Shown: positions 1 to 16,120 of the stretch, one piece after another
How positions within the stretch are numbered: the stretch's first letter is position 1
How the letters are laid out: every line of letters starts with the position of its first letter
Source: a virus
Lineage: Duplodnaviria; Heunggongvirae; Uroviricota; Caudoviricetes
IMG/VR virus record: IMGVR_UViG_2778261035_000013
Span: 1-16,120 of that record
Length of the DNA stretch: 16,120 bases
Direction: 5' to 3' (one strand)
The notes under the pieces: generated by a model
The model's input: the letters and a program-made list of their open reading frames with translations, nothing else
The model's database searches: none
What the model was told of the DNA's origin: nothing
Made by a program: the position numbers and the translations under genes

Positions 1-1284
1 TTAATCAATCAAAAAATCCCACAAATCTCTTAAGGTATGGAAGTTTTGATTTCCACCGTTCATATATTCATCACACATTTTTTCAAGATCATCATCGTCT
101 ATTGACAGGATAAAACCTCTGCCATCATTTGCCGTGTCAAGACAACGCTGTCTGAATAATTTTTTATCCTCAATCTTCCTACAAACGAGAATACCTACAT
201 TTCCCCTATTCCTTGAGAACCTACCAGATAACTGATCTAACTCAGGATTTGCAATTTCTGACGTATAGTTTTTACACTCAACATAAATTCTAGGGCATGT
301 GTAATGTTGCGAAAGCCAATTAAAGAAACCATATTTGGCTTCATTATTATAAGTAATATCAATCCTCTTTCTACCATCATGAATTTTTTTCTGTTTCGTT
401 GGATAACATAATGAAGGATAGAATATTACAGAAAATATCTCTTCAATAAGATCTTCGTACTCCCCAGCTTGTTTTGTACCCGGCTTTAATGATTTTAATT
501 TATTGAGAATTGGATATATGTCAATTTTGTCACTGATTTCCTCTAACTCATTGAAAACTTCATGTGATAATGGTGCAGATGGATTTTTTTCTTTATGCTG
601 TTTATAATCTTCAAATACATCAGGCCGTTGTAAAGTTTGATTAATTACAGAAGGCTTATCACTTCCATATTTATTTTTTAAACTTTTTTTAGTTACTCGC
701 CTCGTGCCATTTTTTAATACCTCTACCAAGGAAGAGTTATTCCTTAAATGTTCATCTTGCATTTCTGGCAATAAATAATGATTATAAAACTCGTCATATT
801 GCAAACATAACCTATGTCTAACCAATAGCTTAGGAACTAATATTACTTTTCCATAAGTTGTCATTGGTAATGATACAAATTCACTATACCACTTTCCTCC
901 ATGTGGATCCCATATTGGCCCAGAATCAATATTGGGCGTTAATTTTACGCCATAATATTCACATATTTCTTGTGTGTATTTTATAAATGGACCTCTTAAA
1001 ATATTGCTTACTGCATCAGAAATCATGTCAGTCCCGATTCCTGGTATTAGTAGCGCTGTATCTTCAAGATCTTTTAACAATCCAGTTGTGACGGCCTTAC
1101 TTTGAGTTAGTGCATTCCAAACCGAATGAGCGGAGCCAGCGCCAAAACCATGTCCACGAGATTTTTCGGACGAATACCCTAAATGAAATTCATTCCTCTC
1201 ATTCAACGAGGCTAACAATTTTTGTGCTTCAGCATTTTTGCCAACCTTAATTAGTTTTAAAACCTTCTCAAAGAAACTTTGCAA
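1..1284 (-). CDS. hypothetical cargo protein (427 aa in ORF track) with C-terminal PD-(D/E)xK-like nuclease signature; candidate defence gene
   Basis: Long uninterrupted ORF whose stop codon is at 1..3. Motif ...HDGRKRIDITY...(26 aa)...RIYVECKNY fits the D...(D/E)xK pattern of restriction-endonuclease-fold nucleases. AT-rich (about one third GC over the first 60 nt). Only in-frame start before the first internal Met is TTG at 1284 with no obvious Shine-Dalgarno, so the 5' end is uncertain. Confidence 0.6.
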   Translation of the reverse strand: MQSFFEKVLKLIKVGKNAEAQKLLASLNERNEFHLGYSSEKSRGHGFGAGSAHSVWNALTQSKAVTTGLLKDLEDTALLIPGIGTDMISDAVSNILRGPFIKYTQEICEYYGVKLTPNIDSGPIWDPHGGKWYSEFVSLPMTTYGKVILVPKLLVRHRLCLQYDEFYNHYLLPEMQDEHLRNNSSLVEVLKNGTRRVTKKSLKNKYGSDKPSVINQTLQRPDVFEDYKQHKEKNPSAPLSHEVFNELEEISDKIDIYPILNKLKSLKPGTKQAGEYEDLIEEIFSVIFYPSLCYPTKQKKIHDGRKRIDITYNNEAKYGFFNWLSQHYTCPRIYVECKNYTSEIANPELDQLSGRFSRNRGNVGILVCRKIEDKKLFRQRCLDTANDGRGFILSIDDDDLEKMCDEYMNGGNQNFHTLRDLWDFLID

Positions 1285-2044
1285 GTGAGATGTAAGTTCT
1301 TGCCCCCAATTCGAATCTAAGGATTTAATAGCACCAGGGTCTAGAAAAACTGGTGTCAGTATCTAGTGGTATGTCAACGAAATCTAGATAAGCTTGAGAA
1401 CGATTAAGTTTGAAATATTCCGAAAAGCGCATAAAGACTCCTAAAAATCGAATGGTTTTTCAAAAAACATAACGCTATTAAAGAATCAACCAAAAATTGA
1501 TGAGATGGGGCACAGCTTAAGCAGAGAGATTCATGTTGAACGATTGAACTCATCATCTCAAGTAAAGATAAATATGGCAAGTACGTGGTTTGACGGTTGA
1601 GCAACCATTGATTGCTTCACCTATCAAAAAGTCGGATTAATATCAAGAAAGTTTAAAACACACCATCACTTAAAATCATTTAACGACGAAAATCGCACTA
1701 CACCGCACCCGCCTGCGGTTTTCATATCACTAAAATTTTTCAGTTGTGATTTTTTACAAACGATATCGCCAGCCCGCGCCCGCTCTGGGGATGCTCTGCG
1801 AGACAGGAACTGAAAAGAATGAAAAGAAATTCAGCTTTTTTCAGTTTTACTGTCCGTCATGTCTGTGGTCTGAATACGCAACACTATGATATTAAATGGA
1901 TAATTTATTTTAGGTGTGTGATTTTATGAAAATTTGTGAAACATGAAAAACATAACAACTTGAAAAATAATAATTTTATGTCCGTATAAACTGAAATCCT
2001 GTGTTCAGGTTTCGGGAACGGATCGGCCACTCCCGACGCATACT

Positions 2045-2317
2045 TTACCCATTTTTTTGCGCAGCCAGCAGCAACTTTAAAGCCTTTTCCCGCTCCTCGG
2101 GTGGAATGGCATCAATGAGCTCTTTAACCCTCCCCTGCCCGTTCAGCGCGCTTGGACTAACGGAATGGGAGAAAGCAACATTCATCACAAACGAGTGACC
2201 GCACTCCACATTAGAGCAATAGCAGTACACATCGTACAGTTGTGGGTGTTTCCTGTTTGTTTTACCTATCCGCGCTACTGCCTGACATGTGGGGCAGTAC
2301 ATTCTCATCATCTTCAT
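2045..2317 (-). CDS. ogr: Ogr/Delta-family zinc-finger late-gene transcription activator
   Basis: MYCPTCQ...(18 aa)...YCYCSNVECGHSF matches the CPxC...CxNVxCxxxF signature of P2 Ogr / P4 Delta. Several in-frame ATGs (2317, 2311, 2308, 2302), so the exact start is uncertain. Confidence 0.8.
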   Translation of the reverse strand: MKMMRMYCPTCQAVARIGKTNRKHPQLYDVYCYCSNVECGHSFVMNVAFSHSVSPSALNGQGRVKELIDAIPPEEREKALKLLLAAQKNG

Positions 2318-2385
2318 CGTTCTGTGCCCTATACTGTTGCCCGCCAGAGGAAGGGATTTGGAACCCTACCTCTTGTTCTGAACGC

Positions 2386-2574
2386 GTAACACTGGTAACA
2401 CGTGTAACATTATTGATTTAAAAGGATTTAATCTGTTACCAGTTAGCATAATCAAGAGGTAACGCGTGGTAACACACCATTTTTTGTTACCAGTGTTACC
2501 AGTCAGTATTTTTGACTGGTAACACTGAAGAACAGCATCAGTCGCGGGTGTTACCTCTGTTACCAGTGTTACCT
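2386..2574. repeat. iteron array (putative origin / cis replication region for the alpha primase-helicase)
   Basis: Eleven copies of the heptamer GGTAACA/TGTTACC in about 190 bp: forward at 2387, 2395, 2404, 2468, 2518; reverse at 2434, 2485, 2494, 2549, 2558, 2567; a near copy at 2458. Copies within clusters are spaced 8-9 bp. Lies between the alpha stop (2600) and the ogr start. Resembles the P4 type I iteron TGTTCACC. Confidence 0.65.
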
Positions 2575-2599
2575 CATAAAAATAAGACTCACGCGATAA

Positions 2600-5287
2600 T
2601 TACTCAGGTTCGGCGCTTCCCAGTACCTGTGTATTGAACTGGTACACACGTTTAAGCCCTATTTCTGGCAGGCGAATGCTGTTTTGCGTCCGGCCATCTT
2701 CACCGGGTTTCAGCCAGCCCGCGTCCACACACAACCTGGCCACCTTACGCGAGTCAAATCCCTTACAGATCTCCTTCCAGCCTGACGGGAGAACGTAGAA
2801 CGTCACAACCGGCTCCGTTACGTTGTCTCCTTTATCGACTTTTCTGAATCCCATCATTGAAACAGGCCGGTTCCTGTCGTCATTCCAGTCAGCAAACCGA
2901 CTGAACTGATTACGCGTCATGAAGTCCCGTACCTGTTCAAGTGCCGCTTTATCTTCCTGATTAGCTGTATGGCCACGGTCAGCCATCCATGCAGCCAGAC
3001 AACGTTGAGCGGCACGAAAGGCCTCTCCCTCCGGCCATCCTGTGATGCCCGCTTTTGTGGCCAGTTCCCCGGCCATCGCAACCAGAGCAAAACGGGTAAC
3101 AGCCCGGCCAACCTGATTCCCGGCATTTTCCGGCGTCAGCCTTCGGGTGTACTCTTTCAATAAGGCTTTCGCCTGGCTGGTCAGTTCCGGCAGTTCAGCG
3201 GTCAGGCAATGCAGCCAGTCGCGGAATGGTGCGCCATGATAATGCGCTACGTGCTGCTCAAGATGCTCAGCCAGGGTTTTCCCGCTACTGAAGCCATGAA
3301 GTTCTTCAAACACGCCATATTTGCCCGAATCGCTTGGGATCTGGATCATTCTGACCTCAACCCCGGCATACGTACGTTCCCCGGCGCTTGCGGCATGCTC
3401 TACCAGTGACAGTTCCCCGGTGGACAGAAACAACAGATTCCAGCGGTTGGTTTCCCTTACCGAACCATCTGTTCTTGCTCTGGCTTTGCCCTGCCCGTTA
3501 GCCAGCATATAAGCGATATTCCCCGCCTCCCTGCCGTCAACCTCCCGGATTTCATCGAGCATCAGCGTGGCATCATTGCGGCGGCTCGCCGTTCCTTCTA
3601 ATGCATTCCCCGTCGCCCGCCACGTATGCCAGAAATCTGTTCCACCACATACTGATGCAGCCACTTTCATCGTCGTGGTTTTACCGTCTGTTGATTCCCC
3701 TTTGAGGTGATAACCTCCACCGCCGATACCAACCAGTTTCAGAAGGGGGGCAGCAAATGCCAGACTCACCGCAAAGGCAAGACGGGCATTCTTTATGCAG
3801 TAACGGCCTATATTTTCACGCCAGTCCTCTGATGTGCCGCTGACACGAAAATCACGCCCCTGCACACTCGATGTTTGTAAGATGACTGACTGGGCTTCGC
3901 GCCCTATCACTTCATCCTGGAGAACGTAAACCCCGCCGTGCCAACCCGTTTTATTCACACAGGTTACTTTTCTGTCCGGTTTACACAGCGAGATATATTC
4001 CATCAGGAATGCTCTGGCCATACCGTTAATGTTGATGTAAGAAAGCCCGTTAACCAGCAGAACGCGGCGCAGTTCTTCCCCGCTGCCACCCAGCATCTCC
4101 ATCGGCATTGCCCATTTACGGCTGTTTCCGTTGGTATCTTCCCATTCCAGCAAACGCCCGTAATTACTTCCATCAGCATCACTGGTGATTGCCGTCACCC
4201 GCAACGGACTGCAAATTTTGATATTACGTATCTCTGTATCACCATCAGACTTATTAACCAGCTTGTCGTACCACAAATATTCTTTTGTCAGCCGGAACCC
4301 TTCTGGTAAACGGGTCTGCCCTTTGCCATGCAACGTCATTTCTTCACGAAAGGCATCTCTCGCCCGTTCTTTCCCCACTTCCTGCCGATAATCATCCCAG
4401 TCAGCCTTATGGCGTACCGGAGGGAGCGTTACCCAGCCATCCACCGCTTTGGCGGCTTTCTCTGCCTGAATACGCCCGGTGTTTTCTTTGCCGTCAGCCA
4501 GATCATTATCTCCTGCCACAATGATCCGGGTTTCCGGCCAGCGTTTTCGGATCTGCTCCGTCACCTTCAGTAAATTGGTGGCAGCGACAGCCGCCACGAT
4601 CCATCCTTCAGTCAGCAGACTGACGGTAAGCGCCGTGGCAAAACCCTCAGTGATAATCACCTGTTCAGGTGTTTCAGCGGGTATATCTGTCAGGGCAATG
4701 AATGCGCCAGACAGCTGGCTACCGGGCAGCAGACTTTTATCCCCGTCAGGATTGATAAGCTGGCCACCGGTAATATTCCCGGAAATATCCGTCAACGGCA
4801 GCAGTAATGAACCGGAGGAAAATGTTATTCCGGCCAGATTCAAAGGCTGTGACAGCAAGGGAAGTGAATACCCGTGTAAGCCCTTGTTTGTCAGATAGAC
4901 CGGCTCACCATTGCAGGACTGCTGTCTGAGTCGGGTATATCCCTCCGCGCCCGCTTCTTTTCCTGCTGCCTTTTTCCTGGCTGGCAAAGCGGGCTTCTCC
5001 TGTATTTCTGGTAATGCAAGCGCCTCAGATACCATCCCGGCGACTTCTTTTATCTTTCTCCCTGTCACCAGACGAACCAGGTCAAGACCATCGCCATGAC
5101 CGCACTGATTACAAAACCACGTCCCACGCCCCGCTTTATCGTCCAGCCGAAAGCGATCTTTTCCACCACAGGCAGGGCAAGCCCCATGATGTCCTGCGGA
5201 CGGTACTTTAATACCTAATGCTGACAGGATATAAGGCCAACGGCCAATTGCAGCCCCTGAAATTGTGGATACAGACGGTGTTTTCAC
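2600..5287 (-). CDS. P4 alpha-like bifunctional DNA primase-helicase (895 aa)
   Basis: N-terminal zinc ribbon CPACGGKDRFRLDDKAGRGTWFCNQCGHGDG, Toprim-like acidic motif IIVAGDNDLADG, Walker A P-loop GESTDGKTT in the C-terminal half. GTG start at 5287 overlaps the stop of the upstream ORF (GTGA). Confidence 0.9.
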   Translation of the reverse strand: MKTPSVSTISGAAIGRWPYILSALGIKVPSAGHHGACPACGGKDRFRLDDKAGRGTWFCNQCGHGDGLDLVRLVTGRKIKEVAGMVSEALALPEIQEKPALPARKKAAGKEAGAEGYTRLRQQSCNGEPVYLTNKGLHGYSLPLLSQPLNLAGITFSSGSLLLPLTDISGNITGGQLINPDGDKSLLPGSQLSGAFIALTDIPAETPEQVIITEGFATALTVSLLTEGWIVAAVAATNLLKVTEQIRKRWPETRIIVAGDNDLADGKENTGRIQAEKAAKAVDGWVTLPPVRHKADWDDYRQEVGKERARDAFREEMTLHGKGQTRLPEGFRLTKEYLWYDKLVNKSDGDTEIRNIKICSPLRVTAITSDADGSNYGRLLEWEDTNGNSRKWAMPMEMLGGSGEELRRVLLVNGLSYININGMARAFLMEYISLCKPDRKVTCVNKTGWHGGVYVLQDEVIGREAQSVILQTSSVQGRDFRVSGTSEDWRENIGRYCIKNARLAFAVSLAFAAPLLKLVGIGGGGYHLKGESTDGKTTTMKVAASVCGGTDFWHTWRATGNALEGTASRRNDATLMLDEIREVDGREAGNIAYMLANGQGKARARTDGSVRETNRWNLLFLSTGELSLVEHAASAGERTYAGVEVRMIQIPSDSGKYGVFEELHGFSSGKTLAEHLEQHVAHYHGAPFRDWLHCLTAELPELTSQAKALLKEYTRRLTPENAGNQVGRAVTRFALVAMAGELATKAGITGWPEGEAFRAAQRCLAAWMADRGHTANQEDKAALEQVRDFMTRNQFSRFADWNDDRNRPVSMMGFRKVDKGDNVTEPVVTFYVLPSGWKEICKGFDSRKVARLCVDAGWLKPGEDGRTQNSIRLPEIGLKRVYQFNTQVLGSAEPE

Positions 5288-5694
5288 AGCAGCACCTCCT
5301 GACCTTCCGGCTTCACAAATTCAAAACCTTCGGGTAGTTCGCCATCAGGTGCACCGAAAATAATATCCCGGTAAACCTCACGCATCTCTGTGACACCAAA
5401 AACTGACAGGCGAATATTTTCTGACATAAAGCCCGGTTTAAGCATCTTTTCCAGTTTCTCTGCGGCCAGTATGCAACCTGCATCAGCCCCAAATTCATTC
5501 ACCCACGGCATTTCAATATGGTAAATAATATTACTCACCACTTTTTCGTGGGTGAGTTCTATTCGTTCGCCATCTTCAATATAAACAGGTTCATTATGAA
5601 CACGCGCCATTAAGGAAATGAATGCATCAGCAATGTAATACCGTAAGACTGCTGTTCGTAAAGCATGCACCTTTAAATTTTGATTATTATTCAT
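5284..5694 (-). CDS. hypothetical protein (136 aa), alpha-operon member
   Basis: ORF with ATG start; start overlaps the stop of the upstream ORF by 8 nt and its stop overlaps the alpha start; backbone-like GC. Confidence 0.6.
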   Translation of the reverse strand: MNNNQNLKVHALRTAVLRYYIADAFISLMARVHNEPVYIEDGERIELTHEKVVSNIIYHIEMPWVNEFGADAGCILAAEKLEKMLKPGFMSENIRLSVFGVTEMREVYRDIIFGAPDGELPEGFEFVKPEGQEVLL

Positions 5695-5923
5695 CGCGCA
5701 TCACTCCCTTAATTGTGCTGGTTTCCTTAACAACGCCATCCAGTTGTTCGGCAATACAGGCCACTAAAGCCGCAGCGCCTTCCGCTGAAACAGTTCTCGC
5801 TCCATTCACTGTGGGAACGGACAGAACCTCTGCAAGAAATTCACTGGCCAGTGCCGCCCGTAACAGACGACTCTCACCCAGTTCACTCAATATGCAGCCT
5901 TGCTTAAAATTCATGGATTTCAT
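5687..5923 (-). CDS. hypothetical protein (78 aa), alpha-operon member
   Basis: ATG at 5923 overlaps the stop of the upstream ORF (ATGA); GGAGGTG Shine-Dalgarno 5 nt upstream. Confidence 0.5.
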   Translation of the reverse strand: MKSMNFKQGCILSELGESRLLRAALASEFLAEVLSVPTVNGARTVSAEGAAALVACIAEQLDGVVKETSTIKGVMRDE

Positions 5924-6123
5924 GCAACCACCTCCCCGGAGCTTTTCACAGGGATACGGGCAGCAAAGCTCAGGATAAATTCAGTGGCAAGTTTAAGGCG
6001 TGCAGCATGCTCGCAGTCTGCGATTACACGCACAGGACGTGGACGGGCATCACGGTCTGTACGGCGGACAGCCAGAAAGACAAAGGTAAATTCAGGGTGA
6101 GATAAAGCAGGGACTGTAGCCAT
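5920..6123 (-). CDS. hypothetical protein (67 aa), first gene of the alpha operon
   Basis: ATG at 6123 preceded by GAAGGAGG Shine-Dalgarno. The ORF-track ORF (5920..6609, 229 aa) extends upstream over the regulatory leader and terminator and is probably not translated there. Confidence 0.45.
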   Translation of the reverse strand: MATVPALSHPEFTFVFLAVRRTDRDARPRPVRVIADCEHAARLKLATEFILSFAARIPVKSSGEVVA

Positions 6124-6175
6124 AATGGCAACCTCCTTCAGATAGCGGGTAACGCTACCACCGGAGTTCCTACGC

Positions 6176-6342
6176 TCATGGGTGGTAGCCCAGACGGGGG
6201 TAGGAATACCGGCTCTGAAGGATACCGGCCAGCCCGAAAGCTGCCCCGCCTGGACTACCATAATACTGATGATGTGGCGTAAAAAATAAAAAAATACAAT
6301 CAGCCACCACACCATAAATTTTAGGTGAGTCAAAGCTGCGAC
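6176..6342 (-). ncRNA. candidate CI/C4-like immunity antisense RNA (boundaries approximate)
   Basis: Region between the intrinsic terminator and the operon RBS that contains the inverted (seqB-like) motif copy at 6199..6224; no coding potential with RBS seen. By analogy with P4 CI RNA and P1/P7 C4 RNA. Ends not determinable from sequence. Confidence 0.3.
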
Positions 6343-6367
6343 ACAAAAAAACACGCCTGGCGCGTGT
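6343..6367 (-). terminator. rho-independent terminator
   Basis: On the minus strand: ACACGC / GCCAG loop / GCGTGT followed by TTTTTTT (plus-strand A-run at 6345..6351). Confidence 0.6.
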
Positions 6368-6563
6368 AGTATCGCCTTCAGATAACACGGGTTCCTACGC
6401 CCGGCTGCCGATTTTGCGGCAACCTTTAAACTATATCCCGTGCATTCCTGGTGAGGCAAGAAATTTATAACCGAAAACTGATCATTGCCTGGATTAATTA
6501 ACGCTGGCATGCTTAAGCCTCTGCTTAAAAATAGTTCTTCATTTTTTCCTGATGCTGTAAACG

Positions 6564-6585
6564 AGACCCGCCTCTGAGCGGGTCT
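6564..6585 (-). terminator. hairpin immediately 3' of the capsid gene (putative terminator)
   Basis: Perfect 8-bp stem AGACCCGC/GCGGGTCT with 6-nt loop, 13 nt after the capsid stop; the T-rich tract is on the plus-strand side only, so function as a minus-strand terminator is uncertain. Confidence 0.35.
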
Positions 6586-6598
6586 TTCTGTCGCTAAG

Positions 6599-7603
6599 TC
6601 AATCCGCAAACGTCAGAGCGCTCTCATCGACAGCCGCGTACAGTTCTGGTTCACCGAGTGCATAGCCTTCATTGCGCAGGTAGGAATGTACGTATTCACT
6701 GTTTTCATCATCAAACTCAGCACGAAACCAGCGTGTTATCGCCTGGGTGTATATATGCAGATTATCCAGCGTCGTTACTGCCAGACGCTTACCCGGCATA
6801 AACGGGGGAATAAACGCAAAGCGGCCAGCAACAGAACTTGTAGCCATCTGTGCAGCATTCACATCAGCCGGGCGGTCTGCGGCATTAAATAACTTCAGGC
6901 GTTGATGTGCTGCCAGCTCTGCCCCAACTAGTACAACCAGACGGGGATCTTCACGAAACTGCTCAGCAATAAGCTCAGTAATCAGATGGTTGGCCAGAGA
7001 ATCAATATTTTTCCAGGTGCCAGTCTCTCCCAGAGTGACAGGCTCAGAGATGATTTGCTTCCCGTTTCCGTAGGCTTTCGCCAGTGCATGCCAGCCAATA
7101 TTGACATCCTCGCCTTTTTTATTGATTTCCGGGTTTGTAGTATTTGCAATCGACACACCATTGAAACCGATCCGCAGCATATCCAGCGCATATGCCTGAG
7201 CAAAAAAGCTCTCAACCGTTTTCTCAAACTCATCCGGCACGCCGGTATGGTAAATATGAGACATATCGGAATAGCTGATCCGGGCGCAGGTATCCGTCTC
7301 TGTCAGAAAGAACTCCGTACCATTGATTGCTATTTTTTTGTGGAAACGGCCACCATCCGCACGTCCGGTATGCAGTTCACTGGCACCAATATTGACGGCA
7401 TTACCTGACACGGCGTTAACATCACGTAGCGTGATATTTTTAATAAGCCAACCGGATTCCAGAATTGAGGTACGCAGTATATTTTCAGTGGGTTCGCTTA
7501 ATGCAAAGCGTCTGTTTGATTCCTCCTGATAGTTAGTGCCAGTAACGAATTTATTATGATAACGACGTGCTGCGTCCGGCCTTTCAGTTTTGAAGGCATA
7601 CAT
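6599..7603 (-). CDS. P2 gpN-like major capsid protein (334 aa; HK97 fold inferred)
   Basis: Recognisable similarity to P2 gpN as recalled from memory: N-terminal RFALSEPTENILRTSILESGWLIKNITLRDV vs KFTVEPSVTQTLMNTMQESSDFLTRINIVPV; GFNGV; NIGW vs AVGW; EDPRLVVLVGAELAA vs EDPDLVVIVGRQLLA; LDNLHIY vs LENLSIY. ATG start with GGTGA RBS. Confidence 0.75.
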   Translation of the reverse strand: MYAFKTERPDAARRYHNKFVTGTNYQEESNRRFALSEPTENILRTSILESGWLIKNITLRDVNAVSGNAVNIGASELHTGRADGGRFHKKIAINGTEFFLTETDTCARISYSDMSHIYHTGVPDEFEKTVESFFAQAYALDMLRIGFNGVSIANTTNPEINKKGEDVNIGWHALAKAYGNGKQIISEPVTLGETGTWKNIDSLANHLITELIAEQFREDPRLVVLVGAELAAHQRLKLFNAADRPADVNAAQMATSSVAGRFAFIPPFMPGKRLAVTTLDNLHIYTQAITRWFRAEFDDENSEYVHSYLRNEGYALGEPELYAAVDESALTFAD

Positions 7604-7625
7604 AGTTTTTCACCTTTTTTAGTAT

Positions 7626-8498
7626 TTAAGAAAAGATTTTATTTTTGTACTCAGTAACCCGATTGTATTTCATTACATGCTCAACATAATCCCGGTCACT
7701 TACGACTGAACGTAATACATAATTATCTGCTCGATAGTACTCCCTGTAAGCCATGACTCTTGCCATTCCACCGTTATTTAATACATAACGATCAGTTGGA
7801 ACGCTACAACGGCTAATAATTTCATTCACAGAATCAGACAAAGATTTGAGTGCATCTGTAATAAATTTAATATCACGAACAACGTCACCGTCATTAAACA
7901 CAGAAATAAAATCAGCAGGGATCTGGCCGGATTGAGGAAATATGCTCAGTAAACGCTTCTCAACTCCCTTACCAATGTAGTTAACTTCATCGGCCAGTAC
8001 GCCCGGTAAAAGCTTGATTGTGCTCAGTCGGTTATGTTGCTCATTCAGCCGGGAAACAGCCAGATGGTAACACCGTTCAGCATCCGCTCGTTCAGCATGC
8101 CCCGTTTTATTCGTTTTGGCTTCAGCAATGCTACTGACGCCGTTTTTTGAGAATGTGCTTTTCCATGCAACTTCCGCATTTGTCACTTCACGCTGCCGGA
8201 AAGATAACTCTTCCTCTTCCTGACGACACAACTGGGCATACCGGCTTAGGAGTAGGTTGATCTCATTCGCCACAGCTTCCGTATCAGGTACTGTTAATCC
8301 CGTAAGTGAATACAGCTTTTCACCTTTAGCGCGCAGCTTATTTAATGAAAATATTTCAATAATTCGCACAATACATGCAGTGTCGCTATGAGTTTCTTTA
8401 AACGGACTTACTTTATAGTTTCCTAACACGGAAACATATTCATTCTTAATTGGAAGGGATATGTATTGACTCCCCGCCGGTTGTAGACGGTAATTCAT
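7626..8498 (-). CDS. hypothetical AT-rich protein (290 aa) immediately upstream of the capsid gene
   Basis: ATG with GAGGAG Shine-Dalgarno; 22-bp gap to the capsid gene; central region rich in charged/helical sequence (LLLSRYAQLCRQEEEELSFRQREV...); lower GC than flanking backbone. Confidence 0.6.
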   Translation of the reverse strand: MNYRLQPAGSQYISLPIKNEYVSVLGNYKVSPFKETHSDTACIVRIIEIFSLNKLRAKGEKLYSLTGLTVPDTEAVANEINLLLSRYAQLCRQEEEELSFRQREVTNAEVAWKSTFSKNGVSSIAEAKTNKTGHAERADAERCYHLAVSRLNEQHNRLSTIKLLPGVLADEVNYIGKGVEKRLLSIFPQSGQIPADFISVFNDGDVVRDIKFITDALKSLSDSVNEIISRCSVPTDRYVLNNGGMARVMAYREYYRADNYVLRSVVSDRDYVEHVMKYNRVTEYKNKIFS

Positions 8499-8534
8499 AT
8501 AAACTCCTCATAAATTCTTCTAATACTAATGTTT

Positions 8535-8735
8535 TTACTCTGAAGAATGACTATCACGCCAAGCATAGTAGTCACCAGCACGCCATCGGGACATACGACC
8601 TAACTTGATTGGTTTAGGAAAACGTCCCAGAGAAATCAGTTTATAAATCCATTTATCAGTAAACAGACAATCAGATGTAATGAATTTCATATCAATGAGC
8701 GAGTCAGCAGAAGGACGATTATCAGTAAACCCCAT
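8535..8735 (-). CDS. alpA: AlpA-family phage transcriptional regulator / excisionase-like (66 aa)
   Basis: Motif LGRFPKPIKLGRMSRWRAGDYYAW matches the AlpA FPKPxKLG...W signature. ATG at 8735 preceded by AGAGAGGAA; the ORF-track start at 8759 is a TTG extension. Confidence 0.75.
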   Translation of the reverse strand: MGFTDNRPSADSLIDMKFITSDCLFTDKWIYKLISLGRFPKPIKLGRMSRWRAGDYYAWRDSHSSE

Positions 8736-8800
8736 AATGAGTTCCTCTCTATGTATCAATCTATATCAACGAAGAGGATTAAAACATCGTTCAAAAACAT

Positions 8801-8835
8801 AAAAAAGGCGAGTAAGAAAAATTTCCTTACTCACC
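8801..8835 (-). terminator. rho-independent terminator after the int-proximal cargo gene
   Basis: Stem 8807..8816 / 8826..8835 (GGCGAGTAAG vs GGTGAGTAAG, one mismatch) with 9-nt loop, followed on the minus strand by TTTTTT (plus A-run 8801..8806). Confidence 0.5.
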
Positions 8836-8842
8836 AAAATTG

Positions 8843-9631
8843 TTAATTTTTTGTAAATGATGGTTTCTTGAATATAGATGATATTAGTTTGCTAATAATT
8901 GGGTGTGATAGCGGAGGCTCTTTTTTATCAGGCCAAAATTCCTCAGCCCGACTAAAGATAAGGTCAGCAAGGGCTGCTGCATTTTCCTTTCGGTATGCCA
9001 TGTCCTCTTTATAAAGATATAATGCTACACTTAGAATCTCATTTCTCTTGGTAGCATGTCTTTCTTGCTGTGCAATTGATAACGATTTATATTTATCATT
9101 AGAAACATCACCATTTAATATCAGATGCAATTTCTTTACATCTTCCCGCTCCAGGTACGCATCTCCCTCATATCCAAACCCATCATCATTTTTCCAGTCA
9201 ATTTGAATATATTTGACCATTTCAGAATAGGTGGTACCAGTAGGAGACAACAATGATGGGTACTCCGGGAACTGCCCCTCATAAAAAACGAAATCACTTT
9301 TAACTTTTGGTGGCATTTGGAAATAGCCTTTTGTACTCGCCAGCACTAGTTTTTTATCTTTTTTAACTTCATTAATCTTAATCAAACTAAACTCAGATAT
9401 ATAACTAAAACCATCTTTATCTTTTTTCAAAGAGTTTATATTCTGAATAAAAGAGTCCACATCTCTTACTTTATGCTTTGAAAAAGACCATCGCCCACAC
9501 ATTCTTAGCGACAATTGAATGTCTTTTTCATCCGCAATATAAATAACATCTTGCTCATCGCAGCCCAATATTTTAGCGGCCTCACTAATACTATAATGAG
9601 TTCTATGAAGCTTGAGAGTATTATTTACCAT
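8843..9631 (-). CDS. hypothetical AT-rich cargo protein (262 aa) between int and alpA
   Basis: ATG start 3 bp after the integrase stop; N-terminal helix-turn-helix-like stretch YSISEAAKILGCDEQDVIY; followed by a terminator; AT-rich. Confidence 0.6.
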   Translation of the reverse strand: MVNNTLKLHRTHYSISEAAKILGCDEQDVIYIADEKDIQLSLRMCGRWSFSKHKVRDVDSFIQNINSLKKDKDGFSYISEFSLIKINEVKKDKKLVLASTKGYFQMPPKVKSDFVFYEGQFPEYPSLLSPTGTTYSEMVKYIQIDWKNDDGFGYEGDAYLEREDVKKLHLILNGDVSNDKYKSLSIAQQERHATKRNEILSVALYLYKEDMAYRKENAAALADLIFSRAEEFWPDKKEPPLSHPIISKLISSIFKKPSFTKN

Positions 9632-9634
9632 TAC

Positions 9635-10816
9635 TCAAGACTCCGTTCCACCAATAAAATCACTGTACCATTGCATCATTTCCCGACGCCCATCAAGATA
9701 CTGAGCATGATTATATATCCCCCGAATAGCATTTTTATCCAAATGTGCAAGCTGGGTTTCAATCCATGCACTATTGAAGCCTTTTTCATGCAAAATAGTG
9801 CTCATTGTGTGTCTGAAACCATGGCCAGTAACTCGGCCAGCATATCCAATACGCTTAAAGACCTGATTAATACTGGCCTCACTCATGCACTTACTTGGAT
9901 CGTTGCGCCCTGGAAACATCAAAGGATAGTTTCCAGTCAGTTCTTTTAATGTTTCAAGATGGGCTAATGCTTGATTTGAAAGCGGCACAATATGAGCACG
10001 TCGCATTTTCATACGTTCTTTAGGAATCTCCCACACCGCATTATCAAAATCCACCTCACGCCACTCACCTGCTCTTAGTTCTCCTGTTCTTAGACCCGTC
10101 AGGATAAGTAAATGTGCCCCCAGCAATACAATTGGGCTTCCTGAATAAGCGTTAAGGGCAGTAAAGAACTCCGGCAGCTCGTTGGCTTTGAGGAATGGAT
10201 AGTGGACTGCTTCATGTCCTTGCATCGCACTGGCAAGATCCGGTGCAGGATTGTAGATTGCTCTACCCGTTACGATGGCATAGCGGAAAACTTCACCGCA
10301 TCGCTGACGGACTTTCTTCGCTTTCTCCATAGCGCCTCGTGCTTCTATCAACCTCAGTACTTCAAGAAGTTCTAGGGGCTGAATATCGGCTATAGGTTTG
10401 TGTCCAATATGCGGGAAAATGTCTTTCTCAAACGCCTCAATGATGTCTGAAGCATAGCCCTCAGACCATTTGGGAGATTTCATTTTGTGCCACTCTAACG
10501 CCACTTCTCTGAATGGGTTAAGTGTCTCGATCGCTGCGTTTAAAGCATGCTTCTTTGCTTTTTTCACTTCGCCAGGATCTTCACCTGCTGCGAGTAGTTT
10601 CTTTGCGTCTTCGCGTTTTTGTCTGGCATCTGCGAGGGTGACTGTTGGATAGACACCAAAGGACAAGCGCTTCTCTTTACCAGCAAAACGGTACTTCATA
10701 CGCCAGTAACGCGAGCCATTAGGTTCAACCTGAAGGTACAGGCCACCTCCATCAGATAGCTTATAGCTCTTCTCTTTTCCTTTAGCGGCTTCAACCTTGC
10801 GAGCATTCAGCATCAT
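9635..10816 (-). CDS. int: P4-family tyrosine integrase
   Basis: N-terminus KSYKLSDGGGLYLQVEPNGSRYWRMKYRFAGKEK typical of P4-type integrases; C-terminal catalytic region with ...HGFRHT... and ...LAHLD...YNHAQY... consistent with the R/H/R/Y tyrosine-recombinase motifs; adjacent to the tRNA fragment. Start placed at the ATG at 10816; the ORF-track start at 10885 is TTG. Confidence 0.9.
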   Translation of the reverse strand: MMLNARKVEAAKGKEKSYKLSDGGGLYLQVEPNGSRYWRMKYRFAGKEKRLSFGVYPTVTLADARQKREDAKKLLAAGEDPGEVKKAKKHALNAAIETLNPFREVALEWHKMKSPKWSEGYASDIIEAFEKDIFPHIGHKPIADIQPLELLEVLRLIEARGAMEKAKKVRQRCGEVFRYAIVTGRAIYNPAPDLASAMQGHEAVHYPFLKANELPEFFTALNAYSGSPIVLLGAHLLILTGLRTGELRAGEWREVDFDNAVWEIPKERMKMRRAHIVPLSNQALAHLETLKELTGNYPLMFPGRNDPSKCMSEASINQVFKRIGYAGRVTGHGFRHTMSTILHEKGFNSAWIETQLAHLDKNAIRGIYNHAQYLDGRREMMQWYSDFIGGTES

Positions 10817-10980
10817 TGGGGGCACATTTCCTAGACCGAACAGAACATGCCCCCGATTGTGCCCCCAATTGTATGTTGATTTCAAGAGATAGGGGTTGAC
10901 GTCAAATGACGAAGAATCGCGTAATATCTATGTTTTTAAAGGGCTTTGTTGATTTGAGATGACTTGGAAATACTAAGGGA

Positions 10981-11026
10981 TGGTGCCGATAATAGGAGTC
11001 GAACCTACGACCTTCGCATTACGAAT
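10981..11026 (-). other. 46-nt 3' fragment of tRNA-Thr(CGU) (thrW-like): att core / displaced tRNA 3' end, not an intact tRNA
   Basis: Minus strand reads ATTCGTAATGCGAAGGTCGTAGGTTCGACTCCTATTATCGGCACCA, matching a thrW-type tRNA from the anticodon loop to the CCA end; the match breaks at 11027, so the 5' half of the tRNA is absent. Confidence 0.7.
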
Positions 11027-11356
11027 TATAAGAATCCGATTCTAATTCAAAGCATTACCCCATCAACACTGCGCTCACACGTCCCACCACATCAAAACAT
11101 GTAAAGCCTTGCAAGCCATTGTGAGGCCTTATGTGTCTCAGTTTTGTCCCATCTTGTATTACGACTCGCATAGCTAATGAAGATAAACGTGACGACAAAC
11201 GGCGAAGCAGTCTTCTTTTCTTTCGCTGCTTCCCCACACCCAGCATGCATACCTTTCCGTCATAACTGAAGTGAATGTCTGTTATGAGCGAGGAGCGGAC
11301 CTTGAATGAAGCACAAACATCCTATAGCTCCTATTATCAAAATGCGTGAGCAAAAA

Positions 11357-12172
11357 TTAATTGATATTTTGGGATATTTCTCTCAAGTATGGTTCAACCT
11401 CTGGGCGTTGCATATGATGCTTCATTGAGTCAAGAAAGGTTATGGGGGTTTGCATTACATCTACTTTAGATTTATTTTTCCTAATGAGAGTCATTCCTTT
11501 GCAAGTTTCTAAATATTCCTTAACTAAAGCTTTCTTTCGATTTCTATGCAAATCGCCTTTAAAAGCTAGAATATGAAAAATTGCGGCACCAATTACAATC
11601 TGTTTCACCGCGCATTCGGATGATTCGAATTCGCCCCATGAAATTCGACCAAAGAAAGGATTCGCATATCCAGAAGGATGCGCTTTGAGGTTATGGCCAT
11701 ATTTTAGCATTTCCGATGGTGTCAATTTTAATGGTTTAAACAACCCAGCCGAAATTGCAAAGTCTGAAAAGTCAGAACTCAACCCCAAAATAACATCTTT
11801 GTATTTATCAAAAAAAGACAATTTCTTCTCACTAGCCCTAGATGAATTAAATGCAACTTTAAGTAGCCAGCGAGAAAGCAAGCTATAATTATAATCGATA
11901 TTAACTTTTTCTTTTAAAAAACACTCTGTAAAGAAACCAGAGCGCTCTAGCATATTTTTGACATAACCATCTAAATTACATAGAACTACGTTATTACAAT
12001 GAAAACAAACATCTTTTATTTTAGCCTCACCACTTATCATTTTTTTTGATTTTTCTTGCCATCCTATAGTTTTCCCAGATGCTGTACTATATTGATATTC
12101 ATAGATGAAAGACGGGAGTATATGTTCTCTAGTCATTTTCCCTTCCTGACCACAATATATGCAAGTGCTCAT
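11357..12172 (-). CDS. hypothetical AT-rich protein (271 aa) with N-terminal HNH-like nuclease motif
   Basis: CIYCGQEGKMTREHILPSF...VCFHCNNVVLC gives a CxxC...EH...CxxC-N HNH-like arrangement in the first ~65 aa; ATG with AAGGA RBS; AT-rich. Confidence 0.6.
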   Translation of the reverse strand: MSTCIYCGQEGKMTREHILPSFIYEYQYSTASGKTIGWQEKSKKMISGEAKIKDVCFHCNNVVLCNLDGYVKNMLERSGFFTECFLKEKVNIDYNYSLLSRWLLKVAFNSSRASEKKLSFFDKYKDVILGLSSDFSDFAISAGLFKPLKLTPSEMLKYGHNLKAHPSGYANPFFGRISWGEFESSECAVKQIVIGAAIFHILAFKGDLHRNRKKALVKEYLETCKGMTLIRKNKSKVDVMQTPITFLDSMKHHMQRPEVEPYLREISQNIN

Positions 12173-12497
12173 CTTATTCCTTTATCAAAGATATAATAAC
12201 TAAAATTCGATTATAACAATTAAAAACTCGCGTTAGTAGTTGTTAACTTATCAATAAACAGTTTCTCAATTATTAGTCAGCATCATCAGAAGAAACCCCT
12301 CTCCAAAGATAATTTTATAAAATAATATAAATGTCCACGCCTGGCACGGAGTAGACTGGCTATCTAAGCTAAAGGTCTGCTGTGAGCGAAAAGCTGACAG
12401 GACGTAGTTTCTTGTTTAAAGAATCAGTTAAGGCATTAAAAATAGATGTAACCAGAGCCAAGGTATAATATCCTGGCTCTATTTACACTTGCGTACA

Positions 12498-13202
12498 TTA
12501 TTCTTGCTTTTTGGGAGGTTTTGGGTGTTTCTCAGGTAATTTTTCTGCAATCTTAAATACCCCCTCATCTTTTAGTATTGTTCGCATTACAAAATTTTCT
12601 ATAATTACCAAAAGTGATTTAAATTCAGCTTCGTTCGGTGACCATGCCCTGTGTGCTGCTGAGTTGCCAGCTTCGGTTACAATTTTAAGTTGGCTCCTTT
12701 CTGTTTCCCCAATAAAACCTTCCTCTTTAAGAATGTCAACCTTCTGGCCTAATGTATGTCCTGGGTGAATATTTAAAACTTCGACTGTTCTGTCAAAAAT
12801 AGTTCTGAGCCCAATTGCCGCTAAAATGAGTGATTTATTTTGAAATGCAATATACATTTCGTTCATTATCACATAAAGCTGATAATCTTTGCTTAATATC
12901 TCGCCAAACCAAGTGGGTCTAATCTCTTCTTGCTCTTGCGTAGGATATGTTGATATATGATAGTTATATACTATACAATCATAGCCTGACTCATCTCTTT
13001 CATAGTCGTAATCTTCACTATGACGGGATTTAATATATGTAAATATTCCGTCGCATCCCATGCACTCTAATAATTTGTATTCACTTTCAGCCCAAAAATA
13101 GTTGTCCCCATCCCCCTCGCTCCATTCTCTTTTTTTATAACCTATTGTGTGACAATTTTTTTCACCTTTACAGTATGGACAAGGCGCTTTGATTTTTTCC
13201 AT
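12498..13202 (-). CDS. hypothetical AT-rich protein (234 aa) with N-terminal zinc ribbon
   Basis: CPYCKGEKNCH...CMGCDG Cys cluster; C-terminal region with a GNSAAH motif loosely reminiscent of DUF4145/HEPN-like domains (unverified); ATG start without a clear Shine-Dalgarno. Confidence 0.5.
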   Translation of the reverse strand: MEKIKAPCPYCKGEKNCHTIGYKKREWSEGDGDNYFWAESEYKLLECMGCDGIFTYIKSRHSEDYDYERDESGYDCIVYNYHISTYPTQEQEEIRPTWFGEILSKDYQLYVIMNEMYIAFQNKSLILAAIGLRTIFDRTVEVLNIHPGHTLGQKVDILKEEGFIGETERSQLKIVTEAGNSAAHRAWSPNEAEFKSLLVIIENFVMRTILKDEGVFKIAEKLPEKHPKPPKKQE

Positions 13203-13572
13203 AATAATTATTCTGCCAATTAAATTAATATTGATATGACATATATGCCAATGATTTATAAACGATAAATTGACTATTCACTTTACTACAATAATTTTCA
13301 TATGAGTAGTGATAAGCCTCTCATTTTCTTTGTCGTAGATTGATCTGCTCTGTATCGATTAACACCGAATGGGGGAGTAGCTTCCGCTTTTGGCACATAG
13401 TAGTCCTAGAGACAGTGACGTAAAGTCATGGAGGATCGGTGGGAGGAGGTGCTAATCCTTTCATACAAAAAATATGTAAAATCAATAACGGCTGTAAATC
13501 ATTCAATACTCGCACTATCGGAAGTTCACCAGCCAGCCGCAGCACGTTCTTGCATACGACGAGCCTGCGGTT

Positions 13573-14127
13573 TCATTTATCTCCGACCGGAAACATCTTA
13601 TACAGTGTCGATACACCAACATCATAGATGATCGCCACCTTTTGGCGAGGAACGCCTGATGCAATTAATCGCCCGGCCTGCGCCCATTGTTCTGGTGTAA
13701 GTTTGGGACGACGTCCACCAATTCGTCCCTGCGCGCGAGCAGCTTCCAGTCCAGCTTTTGTTCGTTCAACAATCAGTTCTCGTTCCATTTCAGCCAAGGC
13801 ACCCATCACATGAAAGAAAAAACGCCCCATCGGTGTGCTGGTATCAATAGCATCCGTCAGGCTGCGAAAATTAACGCCACGTTCGCGCAACTCCTCAACT
13901 AGAATGACCAAATGCCGCATACTACGCCCCAGCCGATCCAGCTTCCAGACAACCAGTGTGTCACCTGCCGATAATGTCCTGAGCAGTTTTTTCAGTCCGG
14001 GCCTTTCGGACTTCGTACCGCTTATCTTGTCTTCAAAAATCAGCTCGCATCCTGCACAGTTCAGCGCATTACGTTGTAGATCTGTGTTCTGGTCATTTGT
14101 TGACACACGTACATAGCCAATAAGCAT
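13573..14127 (-). CDS. pin: Pin/Gin/Hin-family serine DNA invertase
   Basis: MLIGYVRVSTNDQNTDLQ...LVVWKLDRLGRSM...FRSLTD...MGRFFFHVMGALAEMERELI matches e14 Pin / Mu Gin (catalytic Ser in VRVST). Start placed at the ATG at 14127; the ORF-track start at 14163 is an upstream extension. Confidence 0.9.
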   Translation of the reverse strand: MLIGYVRVSTNDQNTDLQRNALNCAGCELIFEDKISGTKSERPGLKKLLRTLSAGDTLVVWKLDRLGRSMRHLVILVEELRERGVNFRSLTDAIDTSTPMGRFFFHVMGALAEMERELIVERTKAGLEAARAQGRIGGRRPKLTPEQWAQAGRLIASGVPRQKVAIIYDVGVSTLYKMFPVGDK

Positions 14128-14181
14128 GGTAGATCTCCCTGACAAAAGCAGGAATGATGCCATTTGCTCGTTATTTCTGCA

Positions 14182-14207
14182 TTTTCATAAACGTTGGTTT
14201 GAGAGAA
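14182..14207. other. left crossover site (pix/gix/hix-like) of the invertible segment
   Basis: TTTTCATAAACG TT GGTTTGAGAGAA has the 12+2+12 quasi-palindromic layout of Hin-family sites (compare hix TTATCAAAAACC AA GGTTTTTGATAA). Its inner half is an inverted repeat of the window end: the first 13 nt, GGTTTGAGAGAAG, match the reverse complement of 16108..16120 at 12 of 13. Confidence 0.55.
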
Positions 14208-14648
14208 GCGGCAAAACGAAATGTGGGCAACGGGGAAAACCAAATCCCTGATATGTCTTTCTGGACGGTTACTGGTGGCAATGGAAATTTTGTGATTCGT
14301 CAACCTGACGGGCTAATCATTCAGATGGTTACTGTAAGTATAAGCGGTCCAGTGGCGATGAATGGAATGACTGATAATGCTTATGCCATTACAGGTTCTA
14401 ATAAGTCTTATATTGCCACAGCCACATTGCCCTTTGTATTTCCTAATAAGGTGCTGGGCGTTATCCCTCTGGTATCAACAACAGCTTATGGTGGTGTATC
14501 CAGTAATATTACAGGTTCATACGCGACGGCGGTTTGTTCTTTTGCCGCTGTCAGGGGGAATAATACGATTGTGTTCAAAGTCGACAAACCACTGAATGCA
14601 GCCTTTCCTTCAGATACCAGCGTCTCAGCGTTAATCATTGGACGGTAA
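14196..14648 (+). CDS. tail fibre variable C-terminal cassette (currently promoterless/silent orientation)
   Basis: Reading frame begins inside the left crossover site (GLREAAKRNVGNGEN...); the upstream in-frame codons of the ORF-track ORF (from 14154) lie in the pin promoter region; followed directly by a tail-fibre assembly gene. Confidence 0.6.
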   Translation, partial: GLREAAKRNVGNGENQIPDMSFWTVTGGNGNFVIRQPDGLIIQMVTVSISGPVAMNGMTDNAYAITGSNKSYIATATLPFVFPNKVLGVIPLVSTTAYGGVSSNITGSYATAVCSFAAVRGNNTIVFKVDKPLNAAFPSDTSVSALIIGR

Positions 14649-14650
14649 TA

Positions 14651-15094
14651 ATGAACTCAGTATTCTTTTCACCCGGAAGTAAAAGTTTTTATCTGCAAGA
14701 ATTGTTTCCAGAATATGAGGATGCGGGAACGCTTCCTGATGATGTTATTGAAATTACCAGAGAAACATATGAGCAATTTCTTGGTCTGCATCCAGAAGGG
14801 AAAGAAATTGGCGCTGACAGTTCAGGACGGCCAATATGGATTAATTCCCCACCCCCTTCAAAAGAGGATGAGGTGTTGACGGCTGAAATGAAAAAAATAT
14901 CTTTGGTTTCAGAAGTCAATACCTACATCAATACCCATCAGTGGCCTGGCAAAGCTGCTATTGGTCGTCTGAAAGGCGAGGAACTGGCGCAATATAATTC
15001 GTGGCTGGATTATCTGGACGCACTGGAACTGGTCGATACTTCCTGTGCGCCAGATATTGAATGGCCTACGCCTCCGGCAGTTCAGGCCAGATGA
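14651..15094 (+). CDS. tail fibre assembly protein (147 aa) of the silent cassette
   Basis: ATG 2 nt after the upstream stop; C-terminal half AAIGRLKGEELAQYNSWLDYLDALELVDTSCAPDIEWPTPP parallels the C-terminus of the opposite assembly protein (TRLNAVLDYIDAVTATNTSTAPDVIWPELP). Confidence 0.7.
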   Translation: MNSVFFSPGSKSFYLQELFPEYEDAGTLPDDVIEITRETYEQFLGLHPEGKEIGADSSGRPIWINSPPPSKEDEVLTAEMKKISLVSEVNTYINTHQWPGKAAIGRLKGEELAQYNSWLDYLDALELVDTSCAPDIEWPTPPAVQAR

Positions 15095-15668
15095 CATCCG
15101 GCGCTGTGCTGGTATTTGTTGCCGTCACCGCGTCAATGTAATCCAGCACAGCGTTAAGCCGGGTTGTTTCTGCCTGCATCAGCTTCCGTCCGGCCTGTAA
15201 TTTCAGCTGAATCAGACCGATGGAAGCCATTGCAGCATCAATCAGTGACTGACGCTGTGCTTCTGCCGCGTCTACTGCGGCGCTATGCTGTGCCTCAGTA
15301 TCGGTCACCCATTTCTCACCATCCCATTTATCGTATGGCGTTAATGGGGCAATAGTGGTTGTATTTTCGGGGTAATCACCCGGTGCTGTGATCTGTTTTG
15401 ATTCTCCCGTTTCGGTGTTATAGACGATTTCACCGCGATGGTCTGGCACATATTCCCATGAATTTAAATTCACAGAACGACAGATAGCATAACCTGCCTT
15501 ATGTATACCTGGTGCATCCAGACAGGAATATGCCGGGATACCAACACCAACGGCAAGATATTCACTTGAAGTGGAAATATATTCCCGAGTTTCACCATCA
15601 TAGTTATAAACGGTAATATCCCCTGCCTTTGTAGCAACAAGTCCACTATTTAATATTGCTTTATCCAT
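15066..15668 (-). CDS. tail fibre assembly protein (200 aa) of the expressed cassette
   Basis: ATG overlaps the stop of the upstream fibre ORF (TAATG); Tfa/U-like size and C-terminal motif; convergent 29-bp overlap with the other assembly gene. Confidence 0.75.
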   Translation of the reverse strand: MDKAILNSGLVATKAGDITVYNYDGETREYISTSSEYLAVGVGIPAYSCLDAPGIHKAGYAICRSVNLNSWEYVPDHRGEIVYNTETGESKQITAPGDYPENTTTIAPLTPYDKWDGEKWVTDTEAQHSAAVDAAEAQRQSLIDAAMASIGLIQLKLQAGRKLMQAETTRLNAVLDYIDAVTATNTSTAPDVIWPELPEA

Positions 15669-16120
15669 TATGCTGCTCTCACGATATAGTTAAATGCAAT
15701 GTTGCGTGGACGGGTATCGACGGGGTTAACGGCCACTGTACCCGACACGGACTGGTCATTACCGTTGCTAACGGTAATGTTACTACTGGTTGATCCAATC
15801 CCTACTGAATCGGTAAATTTAGCACCTGAGCCGCTCAAAGTTCCCGAGATGATAGCTAGCCCCACATAAAAAGTACCTACAGTTGGCTCTTGTGTTGACA
15901 GCACCGCACGCCTTGAATCAACGCCGCGCCCATCATCCCAGCCACGAATAAACTCACCACGTAAATCAGGCAATTTATTTGTCGGATAAGCCTTTGCCAG
16001 TTCCGGGTATTCTTCAGCAGAAAAAGCCGCACCGTTGCATTTCAGCCAGCCTGTTGGCGGTGTGGCTGAAGGCCATGGAACAGGCACACCAACAGGTAAT
16101 GCAGAGCCTTCTCCCAAACC
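15668..16120 (-). CDS. tail fibre protein, variable C-terminal part; 5' partial (constant part lies beyond the window)
   Basis: Frame is open to the window edge (the track's M at 16117 is TTG). Contains PVGVPVPWP...GWLKCNGAAFSAEEYPELAKAY, which looks like the collar motif of Mu/P1/e14-type fibre tips. Reading frame passes through the right half-site. Confidence 0.75.
   Translation of the reverse strand, partial: GLGEGSALPVGVPVPWPSATPPTGWLKCNGAAFSAEEYPELAKAYPTNKLPDLRGEFIRGWDDGRGVDSRRAVLSTQEPTVGTFYVGLAIISGTLSGSGAKFTDSVGIGSTSSNITVSNGNDQSVSGTVAVNPVDTRPRNIAFNYIVRAA

Follow-up and report, generated by a model that had tools for sequence, protein, structure and literature searches.

In Gram-negative phage-inducible chromosomal islands (PICIs) the helper phage switches alpA on, and the repressor or sensor of these islands has been stated to be unknown (PMC6092414). 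In the island EcCICFT073, for example, alpA precedes ORF3 and the element can be induced by its helper through alpA, with no repressor known to the authors of that work (PMC6092414). In the related P4 satellites, the main hotspot for cargo genes is flanked, on the circular map, by delta/psu/sid and int (PMC9122126, PMC13586616), and the published hotspots run from int to psu/delta/sid and from the primase to the attachment (att) site (PMC13586616). Other genes are known from the immediate neighbourhood of alpA, such as yfjH, which occupies the int-alpA slot of CP4-57, and a gene encoding a DUF6387 protein, which lies directly beside alpA in ICEKp258.2, a large Klebsiella genomic island (PMC10763509). 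Here we describe ORF262, an open reading frame (ORF) between int and alpA in a stretch of Caudoviricetes DNA of 16,120 nucleotides (nt) (IMG/VR record IMGVR_UViG_2778261035_000013, positions 1 to 16,120; the whole stretch is called the window below). ORF262 belongs to an unannotated family, which we call fam262, and what emerges from the analysis is an optional gene that is tied in position to the alpA switch.

ORF262 shares features with several of the described systems. Like Stl (Rpr) of the Staphylococcus aureus pathogenicity islands (SaPIs) and PICIs, it is an int-adjacent satellite gene that encodes an N-terminal helix-turn-helix (HTH)-type domain and whose alleles are highly divergent between related elements, and both genes suggest the coupling of a satellite to a particular phage. 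No similarity in sequence or fold was found between the two proteins, however. With the DUF6387 proteins (PF19924) of related PICIs, ORF262 shares the int-alpA slot, the strand, a similar size (~293 amino acids (aa) in DUF6387) and the lack of any characterisation; the two are not homologous (hhalign probability 0.25%, and 0/67 fam262 members match PF19924), and the DUF6387 proteins may be functional analogues of fam262. YfjH likewise sits between intA and alpA, but it is encoded on the opposite strand, is 318 aa long and has no homology to ORF262.

Several lines of evidence show that ORF262 is a real gene. Its ATG (9631-9629) lies 3 nt past the TGA of the integrase gene, with a GGAG 9 nt 5' of it, and its product of 262 aa is a predicted soluble cytoplasmic protein. 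The gene has a GC content of 34-36%, compared with 45-58% in the backbone. An intrinsic terminator (8835-8807), made up of a 13-pair hairpin and the T-run after it, begins 8 nt past the ORF262 stop and separates the gene from alpA. This terminator is kept across 12 loci, with 6 of 10 pairs changed on both sides in the RNAalifold alignment. The ratio of nonsynonymous to synonymous substitution rates (dN/dS) is 0.12 in a close allele pair (window and locus L005), indicating purifying selection. These observations agree with a preliminary description of the window, made from its sequence alone, which had pointed to an uncharacterised AT-rich ORF of 262 aa starting 3 nt after the integrase stop and followed by its own terminator before alpA.

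We further note that the position of fam262 genes is fixed relative to alpA. Contexts were examined for fam262 homologues with identity as low as 23-33%. Wherever the contig continues, a small alpA-like gene lies directly 3' of the fam262 gene on the same strand, followed by a replication module, and a P4-type integrase gene lies directly 5' in all contexts but one, with an overlap or a gap of 0-107 nt. The replication modules themselves differ (DUF927 with or without a P2-type capsid gene, D5_N/Pox_D5, AAA_25 or DUF3987). In the one exception, locus L106, the fam262 member is preceded by a GmrSD-like cargo gene and a gene for a 210-aa protein but still adjoins alpA. The family holds this slot down to ~25% identity, and no member was found outside a position upstream of alpA in the contexts examined. 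Scanning one genome per species with the window's integrase as query yielded 80 loci. In 12 of these the integrase is at least 84% identical, and every one of the 12 has fam262 and alpA downstream (two of them with a split gene). In the other 68, with an integrase identity of at most 71%, this arrangement is absent (0/68) and the cargo after int is heterogeneous, as in canonical P4. The two split members, each in two ORFs, are signs of occasional decay; the one from Citrobacter youngae (L022, 7186-7975) shares 98% identity with ORF262 of the window, and in Rouxiella badensis (L101, 7186-8069) int is split as well.

At a broader scale the occupant of the slot changes. Besides yfjH in CP4-57, PICI-type relatives carry a DUF6387 protein gene (L012, 4907-5788), a gene for a 313-aa fam262 member (L105; hhalign probability 98.3%) or nothing between int and alpA. 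The preliminary description had called this slot variable, which is borne out at this scale, and had gone on to treat it as an int-proximal defence hotspot with ORF262 as its cargo, which is at odds with the presence of one family in 12/12 elements with a related integrase and beside alpA in all distant homologues examined. The true defence hotspot of the satellite lies after ogr/delta (window 1 to ~1700), far from ORF262. The window's cargo ORF at this position resembles PDC-M36A, a candidate defence protein; it runs off the left end of the window and is 1434 nt long in Escherichia coli TK3887. Close relatives carry Kiwa, retron Ec48, STM3845 or DUF4365 genes at the same position. Thus, within the same elements, the hotspot on the ogr/delta side swaps unrelated systems while the int-alpA slot retains a single family. 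ORF262 is nevertheless no conserved backbone gene. Conservation as part of the backbone was an outcome that the preliminary description had named as speaking against its reading, and it holds by half: the position and family of ORF262 are conserved and its sequence is not.

Indeed, ORF262 is the most variable gene of the satellite. Between the window and E. coli BCE049 (L004), Int is 97% identical, AlpA 100% and the 290-aa protein and the capsid protein 98% each, with ORF262 at 58%. The corresponding values for Int, ORF262 and AlpA are 95%, 31% and 83% for L024, and 84%, 30% and 84% for L032, in which the capsid protein is 74% identical. At the DNA level, identity to BCE049 is 95-100% in the flanks, 52-77% in ORF262 and 70-87% in the last third of int, and the divergent patch is sharply bordered near 8810 and 10050. 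The proportion of synonymous differences (pS) reaches 0.75 (saturated) within ORF262, compared with 0.08-0.25 in the adjacent genes. Saturation at synonymous sites, together with the sharp borders, indicates allele replacement by recombination; the difference between the window and BCE049 is therefore an old divergent allele brought in by recombination, not recent fast evolution, and positive selection was dropped as its explanation on the same grounds.

The shuffling of alleles is also seen across more distant elements, where the lineages of ORF262 alleles are incongruent with those of the integrases. For example, in a comparison of allele lineages, L032 and L016 share 56% identity in ORF262 and 61% in Int, whereas L032 and the window share 32% in ORF262 and 84% in Int. 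Rank correlations of identities follow the same trend (0.29 for ORF262 with Int, 0.38 for ORF262 with AlpA and 0.64 for Int with AlpA). ORF262 alleles are thus extremely diverse and shuffled between elements, and, because the gene varies independently of both of its neighbours, its partner seemingly lies outside the element.

The family itself is rare. ORF262 has no significant match in Pfam, PADLOC, PHROGs, NCBIfam or PDB sequence profiles, in line with its earlier designation as uncharacterised. Sixty-seven fam262 members gave no useful match to Pfam, and four of them matched one unnamed PHROG. Among 5.8 billion proteins, a word-indexed search recovered 15 clusters related to ORF262, all enterobacterial and none with a name. 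When 1.84 billion representatives were searched exhaustively with a profile, 81 clusters reached E<=1e-3 and only 8 reached E<=1e-30, the majority of the 81 aligning to the C-terminal 80-100 residues alone. No match was found among 50,697 phage records (tblastn), and by this measure of sequence the family appears essentially absent from phages. No description of fam262 was found in the literature searched.

An AlphaFold model of ORF262, built from a 67-sequence alignment (predicted local distance difference test score 89.2, predicted template modelling score 0.70), divides the protein into three domains (Table 1). The N-terminal domain adopts a beta-alpha-turn-alpha-beta-beta wing fold in the model. 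This winged helix of the MerR/Xis type is the only part matched in PDB structures, and the model has no fold match in BFVD. The HTH-like N-terminus proposed earlier is thus supported by the fold, with the HTH_17 score below the Pfam gathering threshold (13.9 bits against 27, E=0.066), and the rest of the protein is left without a fold match. The nearest relatives of this domain in fold are the MerR/excisionase-type winged helices (HTH_17), including the DNA-binding domains of pSK1 Par and Bacillus subtilis RacA, as well as Xis, TorI, RdfS and AlpA/Vis. ORF262 differs from these in that its recognition helix is acidic rather than basic and in that it has ~200 extra residues, forming two domains that have no known counterpart. 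The beta-rich central domain is the most variable part, with 10-21% identity in distant alleles and no fold match, and the helical C-terminal domain is the best conserved, carrying the signature ERHAxxR ... FWPxxxxPPL. Full-length copies with an invariant C-terminal signature span several genera. fam262 is thus an unannotated family, with two domains without known fold, within a well-known kind of element.

Neither an enzymatic or effector motif nor a known fold apart from the winged helix was found in ORF262 (Pfam, PDB profiles and fold searches). There is no transmembrane segment either; the maximal Kyte-Doolittle value over 19 residues is 0.53, and 0/67 fam262 members exceed 1.6. The median isoelectric point (pI) of the family is 5.5, and that of the window allele is 8.25. 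We considered and dropped two specific activities. A HEPN-like RNase had been prompted by the conserved ERH...R, but the Rx4-6H spacing and a HEPN fold match are both lacking. A DNA-mimic anti-restriction protein had been prompted by the very acidic central domains of some members, but this acidity is inconsistent across fam262.

The short region between the terminator and alpA holds a second structured element. In the alpA leader, an upstream UCCUCU is predicted to pair with the alpA Shine-Dalgarno GAGAGGA, and the Shine-Dalgarno is paired in the minimum-free-energy fold of 11 of the 12 alpA leaders compared (thermodynamic prediction alone). The hairpin arms vary between loci with their complementarity kept, as in L014 (CUCCGUAU/AUACGGAG), L016 (UCACUCCA/UGGAGUGA) and L030 (CCUCCGUGUU/AAUACGGGGG, with G-U pairs). 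The predicted folds suggest that alpA translation may be blocked in transcripts that pass the terminator. The repeats of the two intergenic regions are accounted for by the terminator, the Shine-Dalgarno-masking hairpin and three copies of CAATxGGGGGCA at the int start, two direct (10848-10871) and one inverted (10815-10826). Since the CAATxGGGGGCA copies are the same between elements with different ORF262 alleles, they are more likely sites for Int, probably arm or autoregulatory sites.

Taken together, the data speak against three simple readings, namely that ORF262 is a conserved backbone gene, ordinary hotspot cargo or a cofactor that coevolves with Int. Our favoured reading, which we hold tentatively and at less than even odds, is that ORF262 acts as a phage-facing (helper-facing) specificity factor and modulates the switch that AlpA drives in the satellite. 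In integrative phage satellites, ORF262 would serve the int-alpA control junction as an accessory protein, optional and diversified in its alleles. It would be made along with Int from the integrated element, its start coupled to the int stop, and its terminator would keep transcription from entering alpA. Recognition of a phage product, from a helper or a competitor, would fall to the variable central domain. The helical C-terminal domain, which is conserved and basic, would provide a common output, for example by keeping AlpA, Int or the alpA leader inactive until that product is sensed, and the N-terminal MerR/Xis-type winged helix would dock onto nucleic acid or an HTH partner. In its logic the scheme is like that of SaPI Stl or of an immunity allele of a phage, with no homology of ORF262 to either. 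Of this scheme, we infer the co-transcription of int with ORF262, the interaction partners of the protein and its regulatory output. A bolder extension, in which fam262 and, by analogy, the unrelated DUF6387 would be the missing helper-phage sensor of Gram-negative satellites, is rather unlikely.

A number of observations weigh against this helper-facing role. ORF262 is dispensable for the satellite body, since it is missing from sister satellites that share 96-99% identity over the stretch that begins with the 290-aa gene and ends with ogr; the integrase at their other end is a different one. In a PICI-type relative (L013) the slot is empty, with flanks 92% and 84.5% identical, and we read int and alpA of EcCICFT073 as adjacent, yet that element is helper-inducible. 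The satellite already has P4-type CI/C4 RNA immunity, and the transcription of ORF262 runs parallel to that of alpA, whereas that of Stl is divergent; these two points and the absence from sister elements also set it apart from Stl. No operator-like repeat that varies with the ORF262 allele was found in the two intergenic regions, and the alpA leaders of the window and BCE049 are ~98-100% identical although the N-terminal domains of their ORF262 proteins are 44% identical. Finally, the putative recognition helix is acidic/hydrophobic, and certain fam262 N-terminal domains have a net charge of -9 to -10. DNA binding by ORF262 is not assured, given this helix, the acidic N-terminal domains and the median pI of the family.

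A stand-alone anti-phage or interference factor, close to the defence or superinfection-exclusion role proposed in the preliminary description, is nearly as likely as the favoured reading, though doubtful in its own right. ORF262 would then be expressed constitutively with int, its variable domain would sense a phage component and block phage development, and the diversity of its alleles would reflect an arms race. Like the defence cargo of P4 and P2 hotspots (Rousset et al. 2022; PMC13586616), ORF262 is AT-rich, as is the hotspot cargo of the same window, is flanked by a conserved core and differs between near-identical satellites, with divergent alleles exchanged within near-identical backbones. 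Such a factor also fits a gene that has its own terminator, is dispensable and, in related PICIs, gives way to the unrelated DUF6387 or to an empty slot. Moreover, SaPI accessory genes are known beside int (PMC6092414), and satellites are known to carry defence genes (PMC9122126, PMC13586616). However, PADLOC-DB v2.0.0 gave no match for ORF262 at E<=0.1, and seven other slot proteins (five fam262 members, DUF6387 and YfjH) had no significant match, a PtuB hit of P0017 being at chance level (E=0.023). The absence of a recognisable effector, enzymatic motif or known fold beyond the winged helix is unfavourable too, and without a membrane segment a classical membrane-bound exclusion protein is unlikely. 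In addition, the slot carries alleles of one family instead of the unrelated systems of P4 and P2 hotspots, and the published P4 hotspots lie elsewhere (PMC13586616). Known defence genes occur in many contexts, whereas fam262 is confined to the slot upstream of alpA in those examined and stays there, even at the lowest identities, while the occupants of the true hotspot in these elements change.

It is very unlikely that ORF262 is an accessory of the integrase, a directionality or architectural protein that would act with Int and use its Xis-type winged helix to bind att arm DNA. The gene shows no co-evolution with int, being 31-58% identical where Int is 95-97% identical, and the two trees are incongruent. 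Directionality factors are small (<~100 aa), basic and single-domain, whereas ORF262 has 262 aa and three domains and belongs to a family that is often acidic. A Vis/AlpA homologue is already present, with an excisionase role in P4 (PMC6092414), other P4-type integrases function without ORF262, and the fam262 member of L106 stays with alpA and not with int. Split copies (L022 and L101) and truncated clusters (P0013, P0014 and P0016) would fit a decaying or functionless passenger ORF retained by position alone, but this is highly improbable in view of the full-length copies across genera with their invariant C-terminal signature, the dN/dS of 0.12, the confident and well-packed model and the compensatory changes in the conserved terminator.

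Table 1. Features of the window, with positions in the 16,120-nt stretch, strand and supporting evidence.
Feature	Position	Strand	Evidence
ORF262, member of the unannotated family fam262	8843..9631	minus	ORF listing, homologues, selection, AlphaFold model
N-terminal MerR/Xis-type winged helix, ~residues 10-66	9434..9604	minus	fold match of model
Central beta-rich domain, ~residues 67-175	9107..9433	minus	model secondary structure; per-domain identity
C-terminal helical domain, ~residues 176-262	8846..9106	minus	alignments A1-A3
Intrinsic terminator ending the int-ORF262 unit	8807..8835	minus	terminator scan; RNAalifold on 12 loci
Hairpin in the alpA leader (leader 8736-8806)	8743..8778	minus	thermodynamic prediction
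alpA/vis-like gene, 66 aa, invariant downstream neighbour of ORF262	8535..8735	minus	Pfam Phage_AlpA; RefSeq annotation
P4-type tyrosine integrase, thrW-targeting, directly upstream of ORF262	9635..10816	minus	Pfam, RefSeq annotation, tRNA-Thr adjoining in TK3887
Full-length P2 gpN-type major capsid gene and preceding 290-aa gene	6599-8498	minus	PF05125 E 7.6e-67
P4-type immunity RNAs, between capsid and icd-like genes	6178-6436	minus	RNA model scores
Hotspot cargo gene after ogr/delta	1-1284	minus	PDC-M36A, PADLOC E 1e-43
271-aa protein, N-terminal CxxC/HNH_5-like motif	11357-12172	minus	
234-aa DUF4145 protein	12498-13202	minus	phrog_1305 E 2.5e-28

The element that hosts ORF262 is an integrative satellite (~1673-11026), the right end of which lies in tRNA-Thr (thrW) beside proA in E. 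coli TK3887, a strain that is 100% identical to the window up to 11026. On the minus strand the order is int, ORF262, alpA, the 290-aa gene, the P2 gpN-type capsid gene, P4-type immunity RNAs, an icd/ash-like gene, two small genes, a DUF927/Toprim primase gene, ogr/delta and the cargo gene. The longest ORF of the integrase extends to 10885 and matches Arm-DNA-bind_3, Phage_int_M and Phage_integrase in Pfam, and the AlpA core is conserved across the compared loci. The 290-aa gene (p290) before the capsid gene is variable and uncharacterised, and the capsid gene scores slightly under the TIGR01551 cut-off. The ORF listing and the RefSeq annotation of the satellite show neither sid nor psu. We regard the satellite as P4-like but non-canonical, and it may make a capsid shell of its own; its Vibrio-like relative L016 additionally has a gpO N-terminal-domain gene after the capsid gene. 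The immunity RNAs comprise a C4 antisense RNA (81 bits) and isrK (69.5 bits), along with a c4-a1b1 target at 43.8 bits, slightly below the gathering score of 46.7.

Beyond the satellite, the match ends at 11026 inside a tRNA-Thr remnant, where ARAGORN found no intact tRNA. The AT-rich stretch that follows (11027-13400) looks like a second tandem island, and the 271-aa protein and the DUF4145 protein encoded there are possibly a two-gene defence candidate.

The reading proposed in the preliminary description is thus partly supported, and comparison of the slot across relatives shows where it divides: the occupant varies in PICIs, but in the P4-like clade it is the same family in 12/12 elements. 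For the question of how helper phages are sensed by Gram-negative PICIs and by non-canonical P4-like satellites, fam262 provides a concrete candidate, either as the sensor or as a new anti-phage factor. This candidacy rests on a gene that is fixed beside alpA, is the most variable of its element, is shuffled between near-identical satellites and encodes two domains of unknown fold. If fam262 proves to be neither, a rule for annotation remains, in that the defence hotspot of these satellites is the ogr/delta side and not the int-alpA slot. If fam262 should be that sensor, the rather unlikely extension named above, a hypervariable neighbour of alpA would decide which phage activates the satellite, or which phage gets blocked, and a new fold with a new mechanism would take the role of Stl in proteobacterial PICIs and P4-like elements.
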